A stretch of 64,000 nt of DNA from a candidate division Hyd24-12 bacterium UBA6080 (GCA_002436025.1 DIXM01000002.1:245659-309658); one strand, 5' to 3'. Numbered from the stretch's first letter, positions 4,128-21,094 are shown. Numbers and translations: made by a program. Notes: generated from the letters alone by a model not told the origin.

Positions 4128-4508
4128 ATGAGTGACGACAAGAAGGCCGCCATCATCGAGGCCATTTCCAATATGACCGTTCTTGAGCTCGCCGAGCTTG
4201 TCAAGGAGATGGAAGCCAAGTTCGGAGTGTCGGCCGCAGCCCCCGCAGTTGCAGTTGCCGCTGCCGGACCCGCCGCTGCCGTGGAAGTGGAAGAGCAAAC
4301 CGAGTTCGACGTGATCCTCGAGAGCTTCGGCTCGAAGAAGATCGCTGTCATCAAGGTGGTCAGGGAACTCACGAACCTGGGTCTGAAGGAAGCCAAGGAC
4401 CTCGTGGACGGAGCCCCCTCCAAGCTCAAGGAAGCCGCGGAGAAGGCCGAAGCCGAAGAGATGAAGAAGCAGCTTGAGGAAGCCGGCGCAACTGTCATAC
4501 TCAAGTAG
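4128..4508 (+). CDS. rplL: 50S ribosomal protein L7/L12
   Basis: 126 aa with an Ala/Pro hinge and C-terminal [11 protein letters not shown]...KEEAEE. GGAGG RBS. Confidence 0.92.
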
Positions 4509-4610: not shown

Positions 4611-7600
4611 GTGAATAAGGATAGACCTGTCAGGAACTATTCGCGGGTTACCCCTGCCCTTGAAGTACCCGACCTGCTGAAGGTACAGCGGGATTCCTTC
4701 GAGAATTTTCTACAGGCTGATGTACCTTCGGATGAAAGACTTCCACAAGGTTTACACAAGATATTTCTCGACACATTTCCGATTGAGAGCGCAAGCAAGG
4801 AGTTTTCCCTTGAGTATGTGAGCTTCGAGGTTTCCCCTCCGAAGCACACCGTGAAGGAAGCCCTGGAACGGGGCGTCACCTACTGCGCCAACCTCAACGC
4901 CGTGATGCGCCTGGTCACCCGTGACCCCGAGTCGAAAAGCTTCAAGATGGGTGTTGATCAGAAGGTCTTCCTGGGCAGTCTGCCCATAATGACCGACAGT
5001 GGCTCCTTCATTATCAACGGCGCCGAAAGGGTCATCGTAAGTCAGCTTCACAGGAGCCCCGGTGTATTCTTCGAAGAGAAGGTCCAGCAGAGGAACCGCA
5101 GGGTTCACAGCGCCAGGGTCATTCCCCACCGGGGCTCGTGGCTCGAGATAAACCTCGATCCCAACGATCAGATTTTCGCCATCATAGACAGGCGCAACAA
5201 ACGGATACCTGTCACCATGCTTCTCCGGGCACTGGGTCTCTCCACTGACACACAGATTCTCGCCGCATTCTATCCCGTGGTGGAGAAAGACCTTGAAGCC
5301 ATGCTCAAACGTCAGTCCAGAAGCAGCGACTTCATTCACAGAACCTTCGCCGAGGACATTGCCGATCCGGCGACCGGTGAAGTGCTGGTTCGCTGTGACG
5401 AACCTGTGGAAACCGTTGAGAAGCTTGAGAACCTCGTATCCAGGGGCATAACCAAAGCCCGTTTTCTCGAGTCCCGCTCGGAGAGGGACAATTTCGACGG
5501 AATCCGCAAGACCCTGGCCAAAGAGGAGTCGAGTCTCGGCGCCGGTGTCGACAAGAACGAGGATTCCGCAACGATGTGGATATACGAAGCACTTCGCGGC
5601 ACAGAAGCCCCCTCCCTCGATCACGCGAGAAGCTACCTCAGAAGCATGTTCTTCGACAGCAAGCGCTACAGCCTGAGCGAGGTCGGGCGTTACAAGCTGA
5701 ACGAGAGGTTGAACATCAACACCTCCATGGACCGTCTCACCCTTGTGGTGGAGGACCTGGTGGCGATCGTGGACAACCTCATAATGCTTCGTGAGGGCAC
5801 CAACACCGCTGACGACATCGACCACCTGGGCAACCGCAGGGTCAAGACCGTGGGCGAGCTGCTCAGTCAGGAATTCAGCAAGGGTCTCAGCCGCATGGCC
5901 CGGACCATCCGTGACAAGATGGGCCACCAGGACAAGGACAAGCTCCGCCCGCAGGACCTTGTGAACTCCAGAACCCTCTCCAGCGTCATCAACACGTTCT
6001 TCGGCTCGAGCCAGCTCTCGCAGTTCATGGAGCAGACCAATCCTCTTGCGGAACTCACCCATAAGAGGCGCACAAGCGCTCTGGGCGAGGGCGGTCTTAC
6101 CCGCGAGAGGGCAGGCTTCGACGTTAGAGACGTGCATCACACCCATTACGGCAGGGTTTGCCCCGTGGAAACCCCTGAAGGCCCGAACATCGGCCTCATA
6201 ACAACCCTTTCAGTGTACGCCTCGATCAACCGTTTCGGCTTCCTCGAAACACCCTACCGGCGTGTCATCAAGGGAAAGATCACCGACGAGGTGGTGTACC
6301 TTTCCGCAGACCGGGAAGACCGCACCACGATCGCCGAGGCAGACTCCCCTGTCGATGCCAAAGGTTACCTGACAGGTCCCCTTGTGAGGGCCAGAAAGGC
6401 CGGAAACTTTCCCATGGTGCGTCCTGACGACATCGAATACATCGATGTCAGCCCGATGCAGCTCGTGGGTCTTTCCGCCGCCCTCATCCCCTTCCTCGAG
6501 CATGACGACGCCAACAGGGCACTGATGGGCTCCAACATGCAGAGGCAGGCGGTTCCTCTTCTCTACACCCAGCCCCCGGTCGTGGGGACCGGCATGGAAG
6601 CAGTGGCCGCCCGCGACAGCGGTGCGCTGGTCACTGCCCGCAGGGGTGGCATGGTGGTCGAGGTCGACTCACGCAAGATCGTGGTCAGGGCCGACGGCGA
6701 CGAGTACGATTTTGACAGGGATGACGTCTACGACCTTAAGAAGTTCCAGAGAAGCAACCAGGACACCTGCATCAACCAGAAACCAATGGTCAGCCCTGGC
6801 CAGAGGGTCGAGGAGGGTGCCATCCTTGCGGACGGCATGGCCACCAGCGACGGCAGGCTTGCACTGGGAGTGAACGCCCTGGTCGCCTTCACACCGTGGA
6901 ACGGCTACAACTACGAAGACGCTGTCGTGATGAGCGAGCGTCTGGTGAAGAACGACCTTTTCACAAGTGTTCACATCGAGGAGTACGAGGTCAACTTCCG
7001 CGAGACCAAACTCGGTCCCGAGGAACTTCTTCGCGACATCCCCAACGTGGGCGAGGACCGCAAGCGTAACCTCGACGAAAACGGAATTATCCGGGTCGGC
7101 GCAAGGGTTAGGTCGGATGACATCCTTGTCGGCAAGGTGAGCCCCAAGGGCGAGCAGGACCTTTCCCCGGCGGAAAGGCTCATCCGGGCCATTTTCGGCC
7201 AGAAGGCCGGCGATGTGAAGGACACTTCCCTCAGGGCTCCCAACGGCATGGACGGCATCGTGGTGGACGTGAAGGTCTACTCCCGCCGTGACGACACGGA
7301 GAGGGGCCGCAGGGTTCTCGAGGAACGCATCGACGCCCTCAGGGAACAGAAGCTGAACAGGGAACAGCGGCTCTGCAAAGAGCGGGATGACATGCTTTGC
7401 GAAGTTCTCACAGGCCAGAAGGCCGTCAACCTCATCGACTCCGTGACCGGCGAGCAGTACGTGCCCTCGGGCCGCAAGCTCACCACTGCGTCACTTCGCA
7501 AGGTGAACTTCACCGACATCGACTACGGCCGGCAGCTCTGCGAAGACCTCAAGGCCGATGACAGGGCCAGGAGGATCCTTCGAAGCACAAGCAGGGAACT

Positions 7601-8411
7601 CGACAAGATACAGCAGGAGTTCCTTCAGGCCGAGAACAGGATCAGCGTCGGAGACGAGCTCAAACCCGGCGTTATCAAGCTTGTCAAGGTCTACGTGGCC
7701 AAGAGGCGCAAGCTCAGGGTCGGCGACAAGGTCGCGGGCCGACACGGCAACAAGGGCATCGTGAGCATCATAGTCCCCGAGGAGGACATGCCCTACCTGC
7801 CGGACGGCACACCCGTAGACATCTGTCTCAACCCGCTGGGCGTTCCCTCCCGAATGAACGTGGGCCAGATCATGGAAACCAATCTCGGCTGGGCCGCCAA
7901 GACGCTGGGCTTCGATGTGGTGACACCGGTCTTCGACTCGGCGCACAACAGCGTGATAGAGGAAACCCTGGAAGAGGCCGGCCTGCCCCGCGACGGCAAG
8001 ACGGTCCTCTACGACGGCCGCACCGGCGAACCCATGAACGAGAGTGTTACCGTTGGTCTCATGTACGTTATGAAACTCGCCCATCAGGTGGAAGACAAGA
8101 TCCATGCCCGGTCCACAGGTCCGTACGCCATGGTCACCCAGCAGCCACTGGGCGGCAAGGCGCAGAACGGCGGCCAGAGGCTGGGTGAGATGGAGGTCTG
8201 GGCGCTCGAAGCGTACGGGGCGGCCCACTGCCTGCAGGAGATGCTCACTATCAAGTCGGATGACGTCGAGGGCAGGAACAGGGCCTACAGCAGCATCGTA
8301 CAGGGAAAGGCCATTCCCCCCTCCAGCACACCCGAGGCCTTCAGCGTTCTTCTGAACGAGATGAGAAGCCTGGCCCTGGATGTGGAACTGGTTACCGAGG
8401 AGGAGAACTAG
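4611..8411 (+). CDS. rpoB: DNA-directed RNA polymerase subunit beta
   Basis: 1266 aa. GTG start after AGGAG. Conserved beta-subunit blocks (e.g. GEGGLTRERAGFDVRDVHHTHYGRVCPVETPEGPNIGL). Confidence 0.95.
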   Translation: MNKDRPVRNYSRVTPALEVPDLLKVQRDSFENFLQADVPSDERLPQGLHKIFLDTFPIESASKEFSLEYVSFEVSPPKHTVKEALERGVTYCANLNAVMRLVTRDPESKSFKMGVDQKVFLGSLPIMTDSGSFIINGAERVIVSQLHRSPGVFFEEKVQQRNRRVHSARVIPHRGSWLEINLDPNDQIFAIIDRRNKRIPVTMLLRALGLSTDTQILAAFYPVVEKDLEAMLKRQSRSSDFIHRTFAEDIADPATGEVLVRCDEPVETVEKLENLVSRGITKARFLESRSERDNFDGIRKTLAKEESSLGAGVDKNEDSATMWIYEALRGTEAPSLDHARSYLRSMFFDSKRYSLSEVGRYKLNERLNINTSMDRLTLVVEDLVAIVDNLIMLREGTNTADDIDHLGNRRVKTVGELLSQEFSKGLSRMARTIRDKMGHQDKDKLRPQDLVNSRTLSSVINTFFGSSQLSQFMEQTNPLAELTHKRRTSALGEGGLTRERAGFDVRDVHHTHYGRVCPVETPEGPNIGLITTLSVYASINRFGFLETPYRRVIKGKITDEVVYLSADREDRTTIAEADSPVDAKGYLTGPLVRARKAGNFPMVRPDDIEYIDVSPMQLVGLSAALIPFLEHDDANRALMGSNMQRQAVPLLYTQPPVVGTGMEAVAARDSGALVTARRGGMVVEVDSRKIVVRADGDEYDFDRDDVYDLKKFQRSNQDTCINQKPMVSPGQRVEEGAILADGMATSDGRLALGVNALVAFTPWNGYNYEDAVVMSERLVKNDLFTSVHIEEYEVNFRETKLGPEELLRDIPNVGEDRKRNLDENGIIRVGARVRSDDILVGKVSPKGEQDLSPAERLIRAIFGQKAGDVKDTSLRAPNGMDGIVVDVKVYSRRDDTERGRRVLEERIDALREQKLNREQRLCKERDDMLCEVLTGQKAVNLIDSVTGEQYVPSGRKLTTASLRKVNFTDIDYGRQLCEDLKADDRARRILRSTSRELDKIQQEFLQAENRISVGDELKPGVIKLVKVYVAKRRKLRVGDKVAGRHGNKGIVSIIVPEEDMPYLPDGTPVDICLNPLGVPSRMNVGQIMETNLGWAAKTLGFDVVTPVFDSAHNSVIEETLEEAGLPRDGKTVLYDGRTGEPMNESVTVGLMYVMKLAHQVEDKIHARSTGPYAMVTQQPLGGKAQNGGQRLGEMEVWALEAYGAAHCLQEMLTIKSDDVEGRNRAYSSIVQGKAIPPSSTPEAFSVLLNEMRSLALDVELVTEEEN

Positions 8412-13618: not shown

Positions 13619-14086
13619 ATGAGAAGAAACAGACCGAAAAGGCGTGAGATACTTCCTGACAGGAAGTACGGAAACCTGGTGATCGCCAAGTTCATAAACA
13701 ACATCATGCACCAGGGCAAACGCTCAGTTGCCGAGGGCGTGGTATACGACGCTTTCGACATGATATCCGAAAAAACTGGTCAGGACCCCGTGGCCGTCTT
13801 CAACAAGGCCATGAACAACGTCCGCCCCACCCTCAAGGTGAAATCCAGGAGGGTTGGCGGTTCAACCTACCAGGTGCCCGTCGAGGTCAAGCAGAGCGAG
13901 CGCGACGCCCTGGCAATGCGCTGGATAATCAGCTACTCCAGGGGCCGCAAGGGGCGCAGCATGGCCCAAAGACTGGCCCAGGAGTTCATCGAGGCCTCCC
14001 AGGGCGAGGGCAACAGCGTCAAGAAGCGGGAAGACACCCACAAGATGGCCGAAGCCAACAAGGCTTTCGCCCACTACCGCTGGTAA
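13619..14086 (+). CDS. rpsG: 30S ribosomal protein S7
   Basis: 155 aa S7-like (MRRNRPKRREILPDRKYGN...). Confidence 0.92.
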   Translation: MRRNRPKRREILPDRKYGNLVIAKFINNIMHQGKRSVAEGVVYDAFDMISEKTGQDPVAVFNKAMNNVRPTLKVKSRRVGGSTYQVPVEVKQSERDALAMRWIISYSRGRKGRSMAQRLAQEFIEASQGEGNSVKKREDTHKMAEANKAFAHYRW

Positions 14087-14089
14087 TAA

Positions 14090-14161
14090 TTGGGGGACAC
14101 AATACTTGATTATCCGAAACGATGCGGGTCAAACTGGATAAGTAAGTTTTGTGTCCCCCAA
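14090..14161 (+). repeat. Palindromic repeat element copy A (72 nt)
   Basis: 13-bp perfect terminal stems TTGGGGGACACAA / TTGTGTCCCCCAA around a 46-nt interior. The conserved 5' motif TTGGGGGACACAATACTTGATTATCCGA recurs at 15049 and, inverted, at 16257. Starts 3 nt after the rpsG stop. Confidence 0.65.
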
Positions 14162-14177
14162 AATCCAAAAACCAAAA

Positions 14178-14564
14178 TCATTCCTCGAACACTCCATCGA
14201 CGAACTGCCCGTGATTCCTCCAGCAGTTCGCGTTCCATCCCCGAAGGCTGAACGTGTCCCTCTCTCTGCCCATGATACGGTATCTGTACTCGATGCCGGT
14301 CCTGGGGCAGACCAGACCTGCATGAACGTATCCTGAGATTGTGTTCAGCTTCTTCCAGCCGTTCCCCGGGGGATACTGATTGTGCTCTGCAAGGTAGAGT
14401 TGAAGCGCGCCCGCTATGGTTCTCAGATTCGACCTGCAGGAAGCAAGCTTTGCGCTTTCCGAAACGTCCCTGAATTTGGGAATGGCGATGGCGGACAGTA
14501 TTCCCAGTATCACCACCACTATCATGAGTTCGATGAGTGTGAAGCCCTTGTTGGAATCCTTCAC
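14178..14564 (-). CDS. Prepilin-type N-terminal cleavage/methylation domain protein (type IV pilin / T2SS pseudopilin-like)
   Basis: N-terminus MKDSNKGFTLIELMIVVVILGILSAIAIP is the class III signal with G|FTLIE. GTG start in a GTGA overlap with the upstream gene's stop. Confidence 0.75.
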   Translation of the reverse strand: MKDSNKGFTLIELMIVVVILGILSAIAIPKFRDVSESAKLASCRSNLRTIAGALQLYLAEHNQYPPGNGWKKLNTISGYVHAGLVCPRTGIEYRYRIMGRERDTFSLRGWNANCWRNHGQFVDGVFEE

Positions 14565-14965
14565 AGCTCACCTGCCTTGAAGGCTTCGATCTCCATGTCG
14601 GAAGTGTAATAGAGTCCGCCCGGGGTTCGAAGCGACCATTCATCGTCGTACTCCAGTTCGAACACGAAACCCGACGGAAGGTCAAGATCGGGTGCCAGGG
14701 GCATGGTATCGGTCAATGCCCGCCAATCCTGAACCCTCATGAAAACCGCAGCGACAGAATCCCTTTCCGCCTGCTCCAAAGGGGGCGGGGAGCCTACAAA
14801 ACCGCTGCCTTCAGGCTGATACAGCAGGACAACGATGATCAGAAGCGCACCCGCCGCGCCAAAGACCAGAATGCCGGAGCCTTTCTTCCGCTTTTCCTTC
14901 GGCGGGGCCTTCTCCTCGTAGACGATGTCCATGTCCAGCTCAAGGGGTTTCTGAGTGTTCGTCAT
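14561..14965 (-). CDS. Hypothetical membrane protein (co-transcribed with pilin)
   Basis: Start chosen at the ATG (MTNTQKP...) preceded by GGAGGAG; the ORF track's GTG at 14992 is upstream of it. One predicted TM segment (ILVFGAAGALLIIVVLLY). Confidence 0.5.
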   Translation of the reverse strand: MTNTQKPLELDMDIVYEEKAPPKEKRKKGSGILVFGAAGALLIIVVLLYQPEGSGFVGSPPPLEQAERDSVAAVFMRVQDWRALTDTMPLAPDLDLPSGFVFELEYDDEWSLRTPGGLYYTSDMEIEAFKAGEL

Positions 14966-15048
14966 GCCGGTCTCCTCCAGTAAGAGATTCACTCATCCCA
15001 ATCCCTGATTATCAAAAGAACTCCCACGGTTGCAAAGGGGTGGGTAAC

Positions 15049-15144
15049 TGGGGGACACAATACTAAATTATCCGATGGGAAAAATCTGAATCTTCAGGGT
15101 AGTTCAATGCAAACCTGCGGTTTTTACAGGTTTGTGTCCCCCCA
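15049..15144 (+). repeat. Palindromic repeat element copy B (96 nt)
   Basis: TGGGGGACACAATACTAAATTATCCGA...TTGTGTCCCCCCA with 12-bp perfect terminal stems. Lies in the divergent region between the minus-strand pilin operon and the plus-strand genes. Confidence 0.65.
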
Positions 15145-15160
15145 TTCCCTTGGAGGCCTT

Positions 15161-15861
15161 TTGAGACACTTCACATTGGCCCTCATCCTTCTTACGAAAT
15201 GGTCAGCTTATGGAGCAGATTCCGCATTATTCCGTTTCATCGGCTTTTCCACCGATGGAGTTTTTTCGCCTGGGAGCAGTACGGCGTACAGGACGGCAGC
15301 GGTTTTCCGTGGAGCACGGTGACCATCCAGTCGACTGCTGACGGATCAGTCATCCATGAGTTCAGCGTCGTCCTGGAAGACGGGTTCAAGGGAGAAGGCG
15401 ACCCCGGGGGGGAGAGTATGCGGCTGGCACACGAGGCTCTCCTCTGCCTGTCCGGCGGAAGCTGGGACAGGGGTTCGCTGCTCGTTCACCATCCCCCCAC
15501 AGACATGACGTTCGGGGGAAGCCAGGTGACCTTCTGCACGACTTACTACTCCCCCTCATACTACATCGGTGACTACACACTCGACCTTGTTACCGTGGAG
15601 ATTCCCGGGACTGAGATGGAGGAGTACTGGGGGTTCCCACCGCTTTCGTTGTCCGTGGTGTTTTCCGATAACATCACAGGTCTCACCCGAACGGTGATGG
15701 ATACATCCGACAGGACCGGCAACCTCCAATGGGTGTTCGGTTACGGCATACAGGACGTCTGGTGCATTGGGGACTCGGTCTTTGCTGCTGCCATCCAGTG
15801 CGTATCCATAGGTTTCGAAGGACCTGACCTGCGGTACCTGATGACGGGCTGGACGATTTGA
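15161..15861 (+). CDS. Hypothetical secreted protein; reading frame interrupted at a T6 tract (15261-15266)
   Basis: TTG start after GGAGG encodes a signal-peptide-like MRHFTLALILLTKWSAYGADSALF... in the frame of ORF 15107..15322. The long body continues in the frame of ORF 15199..15861. One extra T in the T6 run would join them into about 233 aa. Confidence 0.45.
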
Positions 15862-15885
15862 CCGGTCACATCGTGAGGAGGAACG

Positions 15886-16203
15886 ATGTCTTCTGAGAAA
15901 GCCTTCACCTGCAGCCAGTGCGGGGCCCCCGAACTGGAACGGTCGGGGGAGGGAAAGCTGCGATGCCCATATTGCGGCAGCCTCTACAGCTTTTCAGTGC
16001 GGGGTCCGACCGTTGTGATCCGAAAGGGAGCAAACGTCATCATTGGCAAAAAAGCAAAAGTTACGATAAGAGGCGGGGTGGAGATCCACGAAGGCGCCCG
16101 GGTCAAGATTGACGGAGAGGTGACACTTCTGGAAAGGGCGCCCGAAGAGGCCATCAGCGCCGCCAGACTGAGGCTGCGAGCAACGGGCAAAGACGAAACT
16201 TAA
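15886..16203 (+). CDS. Small zinc-ribbon protein with bactofilin-like beta-helical repeat segment
   Basis: GAGGAGG RBS. CSQCG...CPYCG zinc ribbon. Then VVIRKGANVIIGKKAKVTIRGGVEIHEGARVKIDGEVTLL, an alternating hydrophobic/Gly pattern as in bactofilin DUF583. Confidence 0.6.
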   Translation: MSSEKAFTCSQCGAPELERSGEGKLRCPYCGSLYSFSVRGPTVVIRKGANVIIGKKAKVTIRGGVEIHEGARVKIDGEVTLLERAPEEAISAARLRLRATGKDET

Positions 16204-16215
16204 GATATCTAAACT

Positions 16216-16249
16216 GAAGGTTCATTTTTCTTTAAAAAATGAGGCCTTC
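16216..16249. terminator. AT-rich palindromic hairpin between convergent genes
   Basis: GAAGG...CCTTC stem around the near-palindrome CATTTTTCTTTAAAAAATG. A striking AT island in GC-rich DNA. Confidence 0.3.
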
Positions 16250-16256
16250 GGTGCAA

Positions 16257-16285
16257 GATAATTTAGTATGGTGTCCCCCAATTTA
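16257..16285 (-). repeat. Repeat copy C (inverted, left-arm motif only)
   Basis: The reverse complement reads AATTGGGGGACACCATACTAAATTATC, about 24/27 identity to copies A and B. No partner arm. Abuts the stop codon of the MFS gene. Confidence 0.6.
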
Positions 16286-17464
16286 TTCCTTGATCGGCTT
16301 CAGGGTGAAACCAATGATGGCAGCCACGAAGCACAGGGCCGCGGCGGTATAGTAGGCTGCGGTGTAGCCGCCGGTAGAGTCGAGTATCCTTCCCGCCATC
16401 ATGGGGCCGATCTGCCCGCCCACACCCCACGCTGTGAAAAGAACTCCGTAGTTCAACCCCATGTTTTTCGTGCCGTAGAAATCACCGACCGCGGAGGGGT
16501 AGACGGAAAGCATGGCGCCGTAGGCGAAGGTGACGACCATCGCGCCGAAAAGGATGGATGCGAAGCTCCCGAAGCTTGCGAAGAAAAGAAGGACAGTACC
16601 CTGGGCGAGGTAGAGGATCATCATGGTCTTCGCCCGTCCCAGTTTGTCCGAGATGGTTCCCGCAATGGGCCGGCCAAGGGCGTTGCTTATTGCCATGAAG
16701 GCCACCAGCAGAAAGCCGAAGTTCCGGCCGGTCTGCACGCTGGCGATCGTTGAAAGGTGGCCGATGATCATCAGACCGGCCAGCGCCCCCGCGACGAACA
16801 TCACCCAGAGCTGGTAGAACTGCCGTGTGCGTATCATCTGTTTCCAGTCGTAGTCACGTACCGAGACCCTGGCCTGCCGTCCGGCAGCCTGCACCTGCTT
16901 TTCGGGGTTCTTTAGGGTCTGGGCGAGTCCCACCACCACCAGGAAGAAGCCCGCTCCGAGAATCCGGAAGGAGTTGAAGATCGTGTAGTTCTGTATCAGG
17001 TAGTTGGTGAGGGGCGCGATGTAGATGGTTGCCGCGCCGAACCCTCCCACCACCATGCCCGAGATCAGCCCCTTGCGCTCAGGTGGGAACCACTTTATGG
17101 CGACGGGGGTCGTGGCCGAGTAACCAAGACCGATTCCCGACCCCGCCATGATACCGAAGCACAGCACAAGCCCCGGAACGGTCTGGAAGAAACTGGCCAG
17201 AACCATGCCTCCCCCCACCAGTATCCCGGCCAGCGTCACTACGACCCTGGGGCCGTACTTGTCCTGAAGACGGCCACCGAAGATCATCATGACGGCGAAC
17301 ATTGCCACAGCCATCGTGTAGGGCAGCGAAGCCTGGGTGCTGCTCCATCCAAGCGATTCCCGCAGGTTGGCGGCGAAGATGCTCCAGGCGTAGAGAACTC
17401 CGAAGGAAAGGTTGATGCCCATTCCGGCCAGGACGATGGTCCATGCCCTTTTGTTCCTGTTCAT
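16283..17464 (-). CDS. MFS transporter, oxalate/formate antiporter (OFA) family-like
   Basis: 393 aa with 12 predicted TM helices. OFA-like motifs. Confidence 0.8.
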   Translation of the reverse strand: MNRNKRAWTIVLAGMGINLSFGVLYAWSIFAANLRESLGWSSTQASLPYTMAVAMFAVMMIFGGRLQDKYGPRVVVTLAGILVGGGMVLASFFQTVPGLVLCFGIMAGSGIGLGYSATTPVAIKWFPPERKGLISGMVVGGFGAATIYIAPLTNYLIQNYTIFNSFRILGAGFFLVVVGLAQTLKNPEKQVQAAGRQARVSVRDYDWKQMIRTRQFYQLWVMFVAGALAGLMIIGHLSTIASVQTGRNFGFLLVAFMAISNALGRPIAGTISDKLGRAKTMMILYLAQGTVLLFFASFGSFASILFGAMVVTFAYGAMLSVYPSAVGDFYGTKNMGLNYGVLFTAWGVGGQIGPMMAGRILDSTGGYTAAYYTAAALCFVAAIIGFTLKPIKE

Positions 17465-19930: not shown

Positions 19931-20461
19931 CTAAAGGAGTTCGAGTGAAACTGCACGAACGAACTGGTGCGCGCTTGTGAAATCATCTCCCCCACTTGGA
20001 CCGTAAGCCAGCAGGATCGCATAGGTTTCCCCCTGGGTGAGAACGGCATCGTACAGGTCGCCGGAAGACATGGGGATGGAGAAGTCGATCTCGGTCTTGT
20101 TTCCGGTCTCGCCCGCCTCTATGAGCGTGACGTTGCTGTTGCCTCCCAATACAATGTCGGCCTCGTGGGTCGTGACGCCCGTACCGAAATCGTCACGTAT
20201 GAACCCCGTTCCGTCTTCGACGTATCCGATGATGAAATTCGCATCCTTCATCATCACGGAGGGGTCGAAACCAACCGCAACCCAGCCCGTCGTTGGCGCG
20301 GAGAGTTTCACGTGAAGGGTCGCCCCGTCGTTCTCCACCCGCCACTGAAACACGACATCGTCAGTGGTGTAGTCGTTCCATCCCTCGGTCCCGGAAGGGC
20401 CCGTGGTGTCGCCGCAGCTTCCCATAAGAAGCAGGGCTGTAATGACAAAAGCTTTTTTCAT
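19931..20461 (-). CDS. DOMON-domain lipoprotein (paralog 1)
   Basis: MKKAFVITALLLMGSCG lipobox. TGWVAVGFDPSVMM.DANFIIGYV...IRDDFG...H..D..LGG core shared with the divergent paralog. Confidence 0.7.
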   Translation of the reverse strand: MKKAFVITALLLMGSCGDTTGPSGTEGWNDYTTDDVVFQWRVENDGATLHVKLSAPTTGWVAVGFDPSVMMKDANFIIGYVEDGTGFIRDDFGTGVTTHEADIVLGGNSNVTLIEAGETGNKTEIDFSIPMSSGDLYDAVLTQGETYAILLAYGPSGGDDFTSAHQFVRAVSLELL

Positions 20462-20545: not shown

Positions 20546-21094
20546 ATGGGTAAGCTGTTGATCATCATGGCCGTCCTCACAGGCACCACATTCGCATGGC
20601 AGGAGATCGAGGTTTCGGGATTCCTCCTCAGATGGGAAACCCGGGCGGGAGACAACCTTGCTGTGGAGCTCACCGGTCCCACGACGGGCTGGGTTGCGGT
20701 GGGTTTCGACCCCTCCGTGATGATGCTGGACGCCAACATCATCATCGGCTACGTTTCGGGCGGCAACACCTTCATCAGGGACGACTTTGGATGGCAGACC
20801 ACATCCCACAGGGCCGACACCCTCCTGGGGGGAACCGAAGACTTTATCATCGACGGCGGCTCCGAGTCCGGGGGGGAAACCCAGATCAGGTTCACCATCC
20901 CGCTTGACTCCGGTGACCAGTACGACAAGCCCCTTGTTCCCGGCAGCTCCTACCCGATAATACTTGCCAGGGGACCCAACGGCGCAGACGACTTCTCGAC
21001 CCAGCACCAGTTCATAACCACTGCCACCATCGACATCCTTGCCTTCTCCCTCCAGGGGTCCACCTGGGGTAGGGCGAAGATGGGTCTTGACTGA
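20546..21094 (+). CDS. DOMON-domain protein (paralog 2, signal peptide)
   Basis: AAAGGAAGG RBS. MGKLLIIMAVLTGTTFA signal. The same TGWVAVGFDPSVMMLDANIIIGYV...IRDDFG core as paralog 1. Confidence 0.7.
   Translation: MGKLLIIMAVLTGTTFAWQEIEVSGFLLRWETRAGDNLAVELTGPTTGWVAVGFDPSVMMLDANIIIGYVSGGNTFIRDDFGWQTTSHRADTLLGGTEDFIIDGGSESGGETQIRFTIPLDSGDQYDKPLVPGSSYPIILARGPNGADDFSTQHQFITTATIDILAFSLQGSTWGRAKMGLD

Follow-up and report, generated by a model that had tools for sequence, protein, structure and literature searches.

Palindromic repeats downstream of rpsG in a Fermentibacterota genome are probably non-autonomous TIR repeats of the TIRtron family

The stretch of DNA analyzed in this study, hereafter the window, comprises 64,000 nt from the candidate division Hyd24-12 bacterium UBA6080 (GCA_002436025.1, DIXM01000002.1:245659-309658). 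It carries tuf, a tRNA gene, rplK-rplA-rplJ-rplL, rpoB, rpoC, rpsL, and rpsG in this order, followed 3' of rpsG by copy A of a repeat, module 1, copy B, module 2, copy C, an MFS transporter gene, and an HI0933-like flavoprotein gene, the last two on the minus strand (Table 1). The repeated unit is called a TIR (terminal inverted repeat) below, and the loci compared are given by their L numbers. The rpsG and fusA genes are normally neighbors in the str operon. The gap between them in this genome (14087-23861) was occupied by 9.8 kb of mixed-strand genes, and its first 2.2 kb was indel-polymorphic among relatives with identical RpsG. The DUF2259 gene of module 2 was broken: it had TTG where relatives have the ATG start, and the reading frame shifted within a T-run (near 15255-15262), which split the signal-peptide part (in the frame of 15161) from an ORF at 15199-15861. 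The same broken DNA was present in two independent assemblies (L033 and L035). The L039 ortholog was intact and encoded 234 aa; in L037, the most distant relative, the gene had shrunk to a short remnant (6460-6815).

Table 1. Positions of the repeat copies and neighboring genes in the window.
Feature	Position	Strand	Basis or content
rpsG	13619-14086	+
Copy A, TIR dimer (hairpin)	14088-14163	.	Repeat, fold, and profile searches; loop of 20 nt
Copy A, left TIR	14088-14114	+
Copy A, right TIR	14137-14163	-
Module 1, between A and B	14178-14992	-	Context, outside the element
Prepilin-type N-methyl/DUF1559-like gene, module 1	14178-14564	-
Hypothetical gene, module 1	14561-14992	-
Copy B	15045-15144	+	Full left TIR (15045-15072) and decayed right arm
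Module 2, between B and C	15161-16203	+	Context: DUF2259 gene (frameshifted) and Zn-ribbon gene
DUF2259 gene, module 2	15161-15861	+	Broken
Zn-ribbon gene, module 2	15886-16203	+
Copy C, solo TIR without partner arm	16257-16283	-	Repeat, pattern, and profile searches
MFS transporter gene	16283-17464	-

A previous reading of this DNA, made from the sequence alone, had described A (14090-14161) and B (15049-15144) as a two-copy family of palindromes with perfect 12-13 bp terminal stems and a common 5' box. Both copies were found at these positions, and the box was readily recovered, with the 31-nt stretches 14087-14117 and 15045-15075 being 90% identical. The stem length was correct for A, in which the 72-nt palindrome is closed by 13 perfect bp and the 26-nt arms were paired at 88%. 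It was too long for B, whose closing stem contained 11 perfect bp (15050-15060 with 15132-15142) because of one extra C in the right arm. Copy A starts directly 3' of the rpsG stop codon TAA (14084-14086), and its predicted RNA fold had a z score of -7.8 for the plus strand (-37.9 kcal/mol), compared with -34.2 kcal/mol for the minus strand; 0 of 200 shuffles folded as well. Copy B lies approximately 90 nt upstream of the ancestral start of the DUF2259 gene; its interior consisted of approximately 60 nt of unrelated sequence, its right arm was truncated to the tip at 15132-15142, and its fold was weakly better than that of shuffles (z = -2.7). The gene context agreed with the earlier placement of A in a convergent gap (rpsG on the plus strand, the pseudopilin gene on the minus strand) and of B in a divergent gap.

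The family turned out not to be limited to two copies, as a third, copy C, was present on the minus strand. Its foot (AATT) shares bases with the MFS transporter stop codon, and it showed no fold. The unit common to A, B, and C was 27 nt long, AATT(C)GGGGGACACMATACTWAATTAT; it is not self-complementary, and a single TIR forms no hairpin by itself. The pattern GGGGACACNATACTNNATTATC, searched with at most three mismatches, had four matches in the window compared with 0 in 100 shuffles. A profile built from 232 TIRs matched only the left and right TIRs of A, the left TIR of B, and C in the 64 kb (E values from 2e-6 to 1.6e-8), together with the truncated right tip of B. GGGGACAC was present in the same four TIRs. 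All three elements fell inside 2.2 kb, and, given three elements in 64 kb, the abundance of TIRs in this genome may be low.

The distribution of the box was determined in public genomes. The pattern GGGGGACACNATACTNNATTATC, with 20 specified bases, was scanned against GTDB using one genome per species, and 29 stretches were obtained from these species-representative genomes compared with approximately one expected by chance (1.2e12 positions/4^20). The hosts included Planctomycetota, Bacillota, Armatimonadota, Desulfobacterota, Omnitrophota, Bacteroidota, several classes of proteobacteria, and Candidatus Fermentibacteraceae (two genomes), and a scan of metagenomes yielded at least 120 stretches. 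Public contigs from at least eight phyla carried the element in full, with internal deletions (313-446 nt), or as hairpins as short as 22 nt. As public data contain dozens to hundreds of copies, A and B could no longer be regarded as chance local palindromes with no further copies and no tie to IS ends. The logo of 261 distinct boxes displayed a sharply bounded 27-nt unit, AATTC-GGGGGACACMATACTWAATTAT, in which GGGGACAC was invariant at positions that the search pattern itself had constrained. The exact box sequence was not found in a literature search, and the family was recognized by way of publications on RAYTs.

In many loci, inverted box pairs 719-807 nt apart enclosed one ORF of 218-225 aa. 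This ORF matched Pfam Y1_Tnp (E values of 1e-15 and 4e-13) and scored 70.6 and 73.7 bits against NCBIfam REP_Tyr_transpos, under the cutoff of 80, and 17.6-18.8 bits against transpos_IS200, for which the cutoff is 55. It contained the motifs NHVH and YIELNP, and the gene end and the 3' TIR overlapped (GATAATTAA). Di Nocera et al. (2013, BMC Genomics 14:522; PMC3733652) reported RAYT-like genes with long flanking TIRs, which they named TIRYT, and called the resulting units TIRtrons; their TIRs share the motif GGGGWSAS and form moderately abundant families of single, dimeric, or clustered copies. Most TIRYTs were subsequently placed in TnpAY1 subclass 2.1, whose members have NHVH and YIELNP motifs and a median length of 238 aa, lack REP hairpins, and show the TIR consensus GGGG[AT][CG]A[CG] (Quentin et al. 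2018; PMC6006769). RAYT group 1, which is equivalent to this subclass, has the widest distribution of the RAYT groups and is the most IS-like of them (Bertels et al. 2017; PMC5581495). Judged from its sequence, the enzyme associated with the box is an HUH/Y1 protein of TnpAY1 subclass 2.1, or RAYT group 1, and is referred to as TIRYT below.

A full-length or nearly full-length TIRYT homologue was enclosed by 17 TIR pairs (719-1063 nt), both motifs were invariant in the TIRYT alignment, and the Y1/HUH gene was the sole gene type between full-length TIR pairs. TIRYT homologues picked regardless of their flanks carried related TIR variants, such as AATTAGGGGGACAGTATATGTAATTAT and GGGGGACACAATACGTAATTCC; therefore, the box in the window is one widespread variant of a family-wide TIR. 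No phage vehicle was detected (0 matches in IMG/VR), and plasmids contained only distant TIRYT homologues with less than 45% identity. On the basis of these results, we assign A, B, and C to the TIRtron family, with a probability of roughly 0.85, as non-autonomous repeats (a dimer, a decayed dimer, and a solo TIR, respectively) that TIRYT would mobilize. The elements share with the published TIRtrons a TIR that starts with GGGGACAC and fits GGGGWSAS, a Y1 gene of approximately 220 aa with NHVH and YIE(L/Q)NP between the TIRs, the overlap of the 3' TIR with the gene end, occurrence as singles, dimers, and clusters, a moderate copy number, and a wide, patchy spread among phyla. They differ from the TIRtrons of the cited literature in their host, Candidatus Fermentibacteraceae, which is absent from the hosts listed there, in the near constancy of one 27-nt TIR variant across at least eight phyla, and in a fully documented series of deletions whose smallest member is a 22-nt hairpin and whose largest measures approximately 800 nt.

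This series was evident from 73 TIR pairs, which formed a length continuum of 43-48, 67-76, 93-100, 129-256, and 313-446 nt and then full length (approximately 730-800 nt). Remnants of the N and C termini of TIRYT persisted in some pairs of 313-446 nt, hairpins of 22-46 nt with identical TIR tips occurred in several lineages, and A (72 nt) and B (96 nt) both lie within the series. The suggestion of MITE/PATE-like mobile palindromes in the sequence-only reading was right in substance, inasmuch as the box is the TIR of elements with a Y1 (IS200-like, HUH) transposase and internally deleted and hairpin-only derivatives exist. The interiors of similar-sized copies were unrelated, both between A and the copy in L146 and among copies of 153-155 nt. 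By sequence comparison, such interiors fit repeated internal loss or replacement between conserved ends rather than a structured RNA. The latter had also been proposed, and A does fold very stably on both strands, but no Rfam family reached the gathering threshold over the window except for tRNA elsewhere, and at E<=1 over 13900-16400 the only match was a sub-threshold generic miRNA-precursor hairpin on both strands. Moreover, the loop of A was inverted between close relatives, C has no fold, and that of B is weak. It is therefore extremely unlikely that A, B, and C are small structured RNA genes.

Classical MITEs moved by a DDE transposase would also explain terminal inverted repeats, small size, and the lack of coding capacity, and in such elements the TIRs are accompanied by a target-site duplication. 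In 63 distinct pairs, the complementarity of the arms extended exactly 5 nt past GGGGG and then fell to background; no target-site duplication of 2-5 nt was detected at the tested offsets, and direct-repeat matches remained at chance level. As this result and the exclusive presence of a Y1/HUH gene between full-length TIR pairs both contradict a DDE-type element, we give this explanation almost no credence.

A transposase gene was not detected in the window by tblastn with two TIRYTs (best E value of 0.12). When RpsG of the window was used as a query, ten loci were recovered from Fermentibacteraceae-type contigs, of which L033 and L035 were identical to the window over 12,468 nt. L035 is located on TOLCLC_10000048, a Candidatus Fermentibacteraceae contig, and the same contig encodes a TIRYT, P0003, approximately 93 kb from copy A. 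The P0003 gene was intact and encoded 218 aa with NHVH and YIEQNP motifs. A TIR located 100 nt downstream of the gene (L160 6753-6783) was identical to the box of C over 31 nt and was the one TIR element in this 12.7-kb locus, none being found upstream of the gene. P0003 therefore differs from flanked TIRtrons in retaining one TIR only, at its 3' side, and the gene itself looks immobile. In L119, a Fermentibacteraceae-like metagenome locus, a TIRYT 81% identical to P0003 had a solo TIR on one side and a TIR dimer of 155 nt on the other. The AlphaFold model of P0003 had a pLDDT of 87.7, and its best PDB match was E. coli TnpA-REP bound to the REP hairpin (4er8_A; E value of 3.9e-8, target TM of 0.73). 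The next best matches were the ISDra2 and then the IS608 transposases. By sequence, 4er8 was the only PDB match (E value of 0.0023). Our literature search found no biochemical work on TIRYTs.

The relatives were 88.8-96.1% identical to the window over rpoC-rpsG, and those compared share an identical RpsG, with the differences falling at the TIR elements. The position 3' of rpsG was occupied by a 68-72-nt TIR dimer in the window and L030-L032 and by a 22-23-nt hairpin composed of TIR tips only in L034 and L036-L039. The loop of A was inverted in place in L030 and L031 compared with the window, and the flanks kept their orientation. Copy C was present in the window and L039, was represented by a closed 93-nt element in L031, and was absent from L034, L036, and L037. 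Modules 1 and 2 were present or absent independently of each other, with TIR elements at the junctions: module 1 was missing in L036 and L039, and L030 had a closed TIR element of 123 nt instead of module 2. Module 1 was 82-84% identical to that of L030 and L031. The modules diverged like other non-core genes, indicating that these differences were old polymorphisms rather than recent transfers. A recent lateral transfer of module 1, considered as a separate possibility, was ruled out by the same 82-84% identity. No pair of filled and empty sites with identical flanks was found among the relatives, and the element ends were not mapped exactly, because the junctions of the relatives were too diverged.

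We also considered whether the left TIR of B and C form the ends of one cassette-like unit of 1.23 kb that carries the DUF2259 and Zn-ribbon genes, with TIRs acting like attC or cassette boundaries. The two arms (15046-15072 and 16257-16283) were 93% complementary, and the loss of module 2 with a closed TIR element in L030, as well as the loss of module 1 in two relatives, would be expected of such units. However, nearly all relatives had module 2 at this locus, its divergence (77-94% identity) being typical of vertical descent, module 1 resembles its L030 and L031 counterparts to the degree given above, and neither module was seen at another genomic site. Furthermore, L034, L036, and L037 have the module 2 genes without C, and the TIRs thus arrived independently of the genes. 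Boundaries of a single cassette-like unit are therefore highly unlikely. A composite transposon spanning B to C was rejected on the grounds that the cargo occurs without C in relatives and that its divergence looks vertical.

If A, B, and C are TIR repeats mobilized by TIRYT, the following series of events may be proposed. Loss of the interior between two TIRs would generate miniature palindromes of any length. In single-stranded DNA, both TIRs of a copy would pair into a hairpin, which TIRYT, encoded approximately 93 kb away, could recognize in trans, as suggested by analogy with the TnpA proteins of IS608 and ISDra2 and with E. coli TnpA-REP. By the same analogy, cleavage would take place at the foot of the hairpin, around AATT/GGGGG, and the hairpin would be rejoined elsewhere without a target-site duplication. 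The observations establish the sequence family, its tie to the Y1 gene, the range of sizes, the lack of duplication, an intact TIRYT gene in the genome, and the polymorphism and inversion at the sites, whereas the catalytic steps, the single-stranded substrate, and any current activity are inferred.

The downstream T-tract said to be missing from A and B was indeed missing on either strand, and the same was true of C; none of the three combines a G+C-rich hairpin with a T-tract, as intrinsic terminators do. Nevertheless, the hairpins could primarily be terminators or 3' mRNA-stabilizing stem-loops that only secondarily resemble transposon ends. In 10 of 10 relatives, a long (68-72 nt) or short (22-23 nt) hairpin with the stem GGGGGRCAC was located 5-12 nt after the rpsG stop codon; the short stems formed an A-T, G.T, and G-C series across lineages; in L037, a T-run followed the rpsG hairpin, the only canonical terminator-like version seen; and both A and C adjoin stop codons. 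Canonical hairpin plus T-tract terminators were not enriched in this genome (11, 13, and 22 compared with 20.7, 18.7, and 18.4 expected); therefore, the missing T-tract is indecisive either way. In contrast, B is situated in a gap with divergent promoters, C has no hairpin, and many phyla have a transposase gene flanked by this 27-nt sequence; nor would a terminator explain why the AT-rich inner half of the box is conserved. Taken together, a primary role in termination or mRNA stability appears improbable, and termination could at most be an additional, exapted role of A. Copy A may also serve as the 3' hairpin of the rpsL-rpsG transcript, a likely secondary effect that would not exclude mobilization by TIRYT and that is favored by the conserved position of the hairpin, the series of short stems, and the T-run in L037.

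Two features pointed to a possible role of TIRs for the host. The left TIR of B was nearly invariant in five lineages, while the surrounding intergenic DNA was 65% identical and the right arm of B had decayed. This conservation hints at a host-level function, which a purely selfish model does not predict. In addition, the 3' end of a sensor-kinase (HisKA/response-regulator) gene contained a TIR as its last approximately 20 residues (..KPYHLDQLGDTILNYL..) in four Fermentibacteraceae loci (L160 6722-6790, L119 1190-1274, L003 approximately 1560-1640, and L026 approximately 7930-8000), adjoining the TIRYT gene where TIRYT was present. Comparison of these sequences hints that solo TIRs such as the left TIR of B and the kinase-gene TIR are under selection or homogenization. 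Together with the TIR-tip hairpin after the rpsG of every relative, these observations could be accounted for if the TIRYT-TIR pair in Fermentibacteraceae were a vertically inherited, domesticated system with solo TIRs kept by selection, although we regard this as rather unlikely. If it were true, the TIR copies would be transcript-end or regulatory elements, and TIRs would be preferred breakpoints for the gain, loss, and inversion of small modules downstream of rpsG.

The TIR repeats resemble REPINs and REP-RAYT systems (Bertels and Rainey 2011; PMC3116915) in that A is a hairpin-forming inverted doublet (arms of 26 nt, spacer of 20 nt), in their intergenic location, often right after stop codons, in the presence of a low-copy HUH/Y1 gene flanked by repeats, and in the best structural match of the enzyme, TnpA-REP (PDB 4ER8). 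Unlike REPs, they have an AATT(C) foot followed by GGGGG without GTAG or GTGG, and the single unit is not a palindrome. REPINs number tens to hundreds per genome; evidence for copies in the hundreds was not obtained here, three elements being present in the 64 kb and one in the 12.7-kb TIRYT locus. The enzymes also score below the REP_Tyr_transpos cutoff, in contrast to REP-RAYT systems. With IS200/IS605 elements and PATEs they share an enzyme of the Pfam Y1_Tnp superfamily (HUH and a catalytic Tyr), the lack of a target-site duplication, and non-autonomous palindromes. However, IS200/IS605 elements have asymmetric subterminal hairpin ends without TIRs, whereas the full elements described here have 27-nt TIRs, and the tyrosine motif is Y...Q in the former and Y...NP in the latter. 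Hence, the derivation from IS200/IS605 ends offered in the sequence-only reading missed the exact family, which is the RAYT-related TIRYT/TIRtron class (PMC3733652, PMC6006769).

TIRtrons have been described since 2013, and the copies in the window are a tidy but ordinary case from a candidate phylum that has received little study. The analysis assigns unexplained palindromes to a published class of mobile DNA and provides a concrete example of this class in Fermentibacterota. It goes modestly beyond the cited papers with respect to the cross-phylum constancy of one 27-nt TIR and the deletion series leading from a transposase element to hairpins. A genome with an intact enzyme gene and defined substrates (a dimer, a decayed dimer, and a solo TIR) would be a convenient test system for TIRYT. 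In annotation, a hairpin of this kind that follows a stop codon should not automatically be taken for a terminator or an sRNA gene.

Several minor observations were made in the course of this work. A Thermodesulfobacteriota contig (L024) contained two nearly identical 313-nt deleted TIRtrons (4155-4467 and 5222-5534) situated 1,067 nt apart, as well as a full TIRtron copy (479-1206); the 313-nt pair looks like a recent amplification of a deletion derivative. Tandem repeats of the outermost TIR tip only (GGAATTCC, GGGGGAGTTCC, and partial boxes) were found beside TIRtrons at L163 1380-1500 and 2170-2290, L164 1380-1470, and L004 560-670, and also upstream of the box in L008, L012, L028, and L029. 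These reiterations may result from repeated cleavage and ligation at the tip, with which they are compatible and which they do not prove. Finally, an inverted repeat of 135 nt with 76% complementarity was detected in the window at 20184-20318 and 20656-20790, which probably represents two opposed DOMON-domain paralogues rather than a mobile element.
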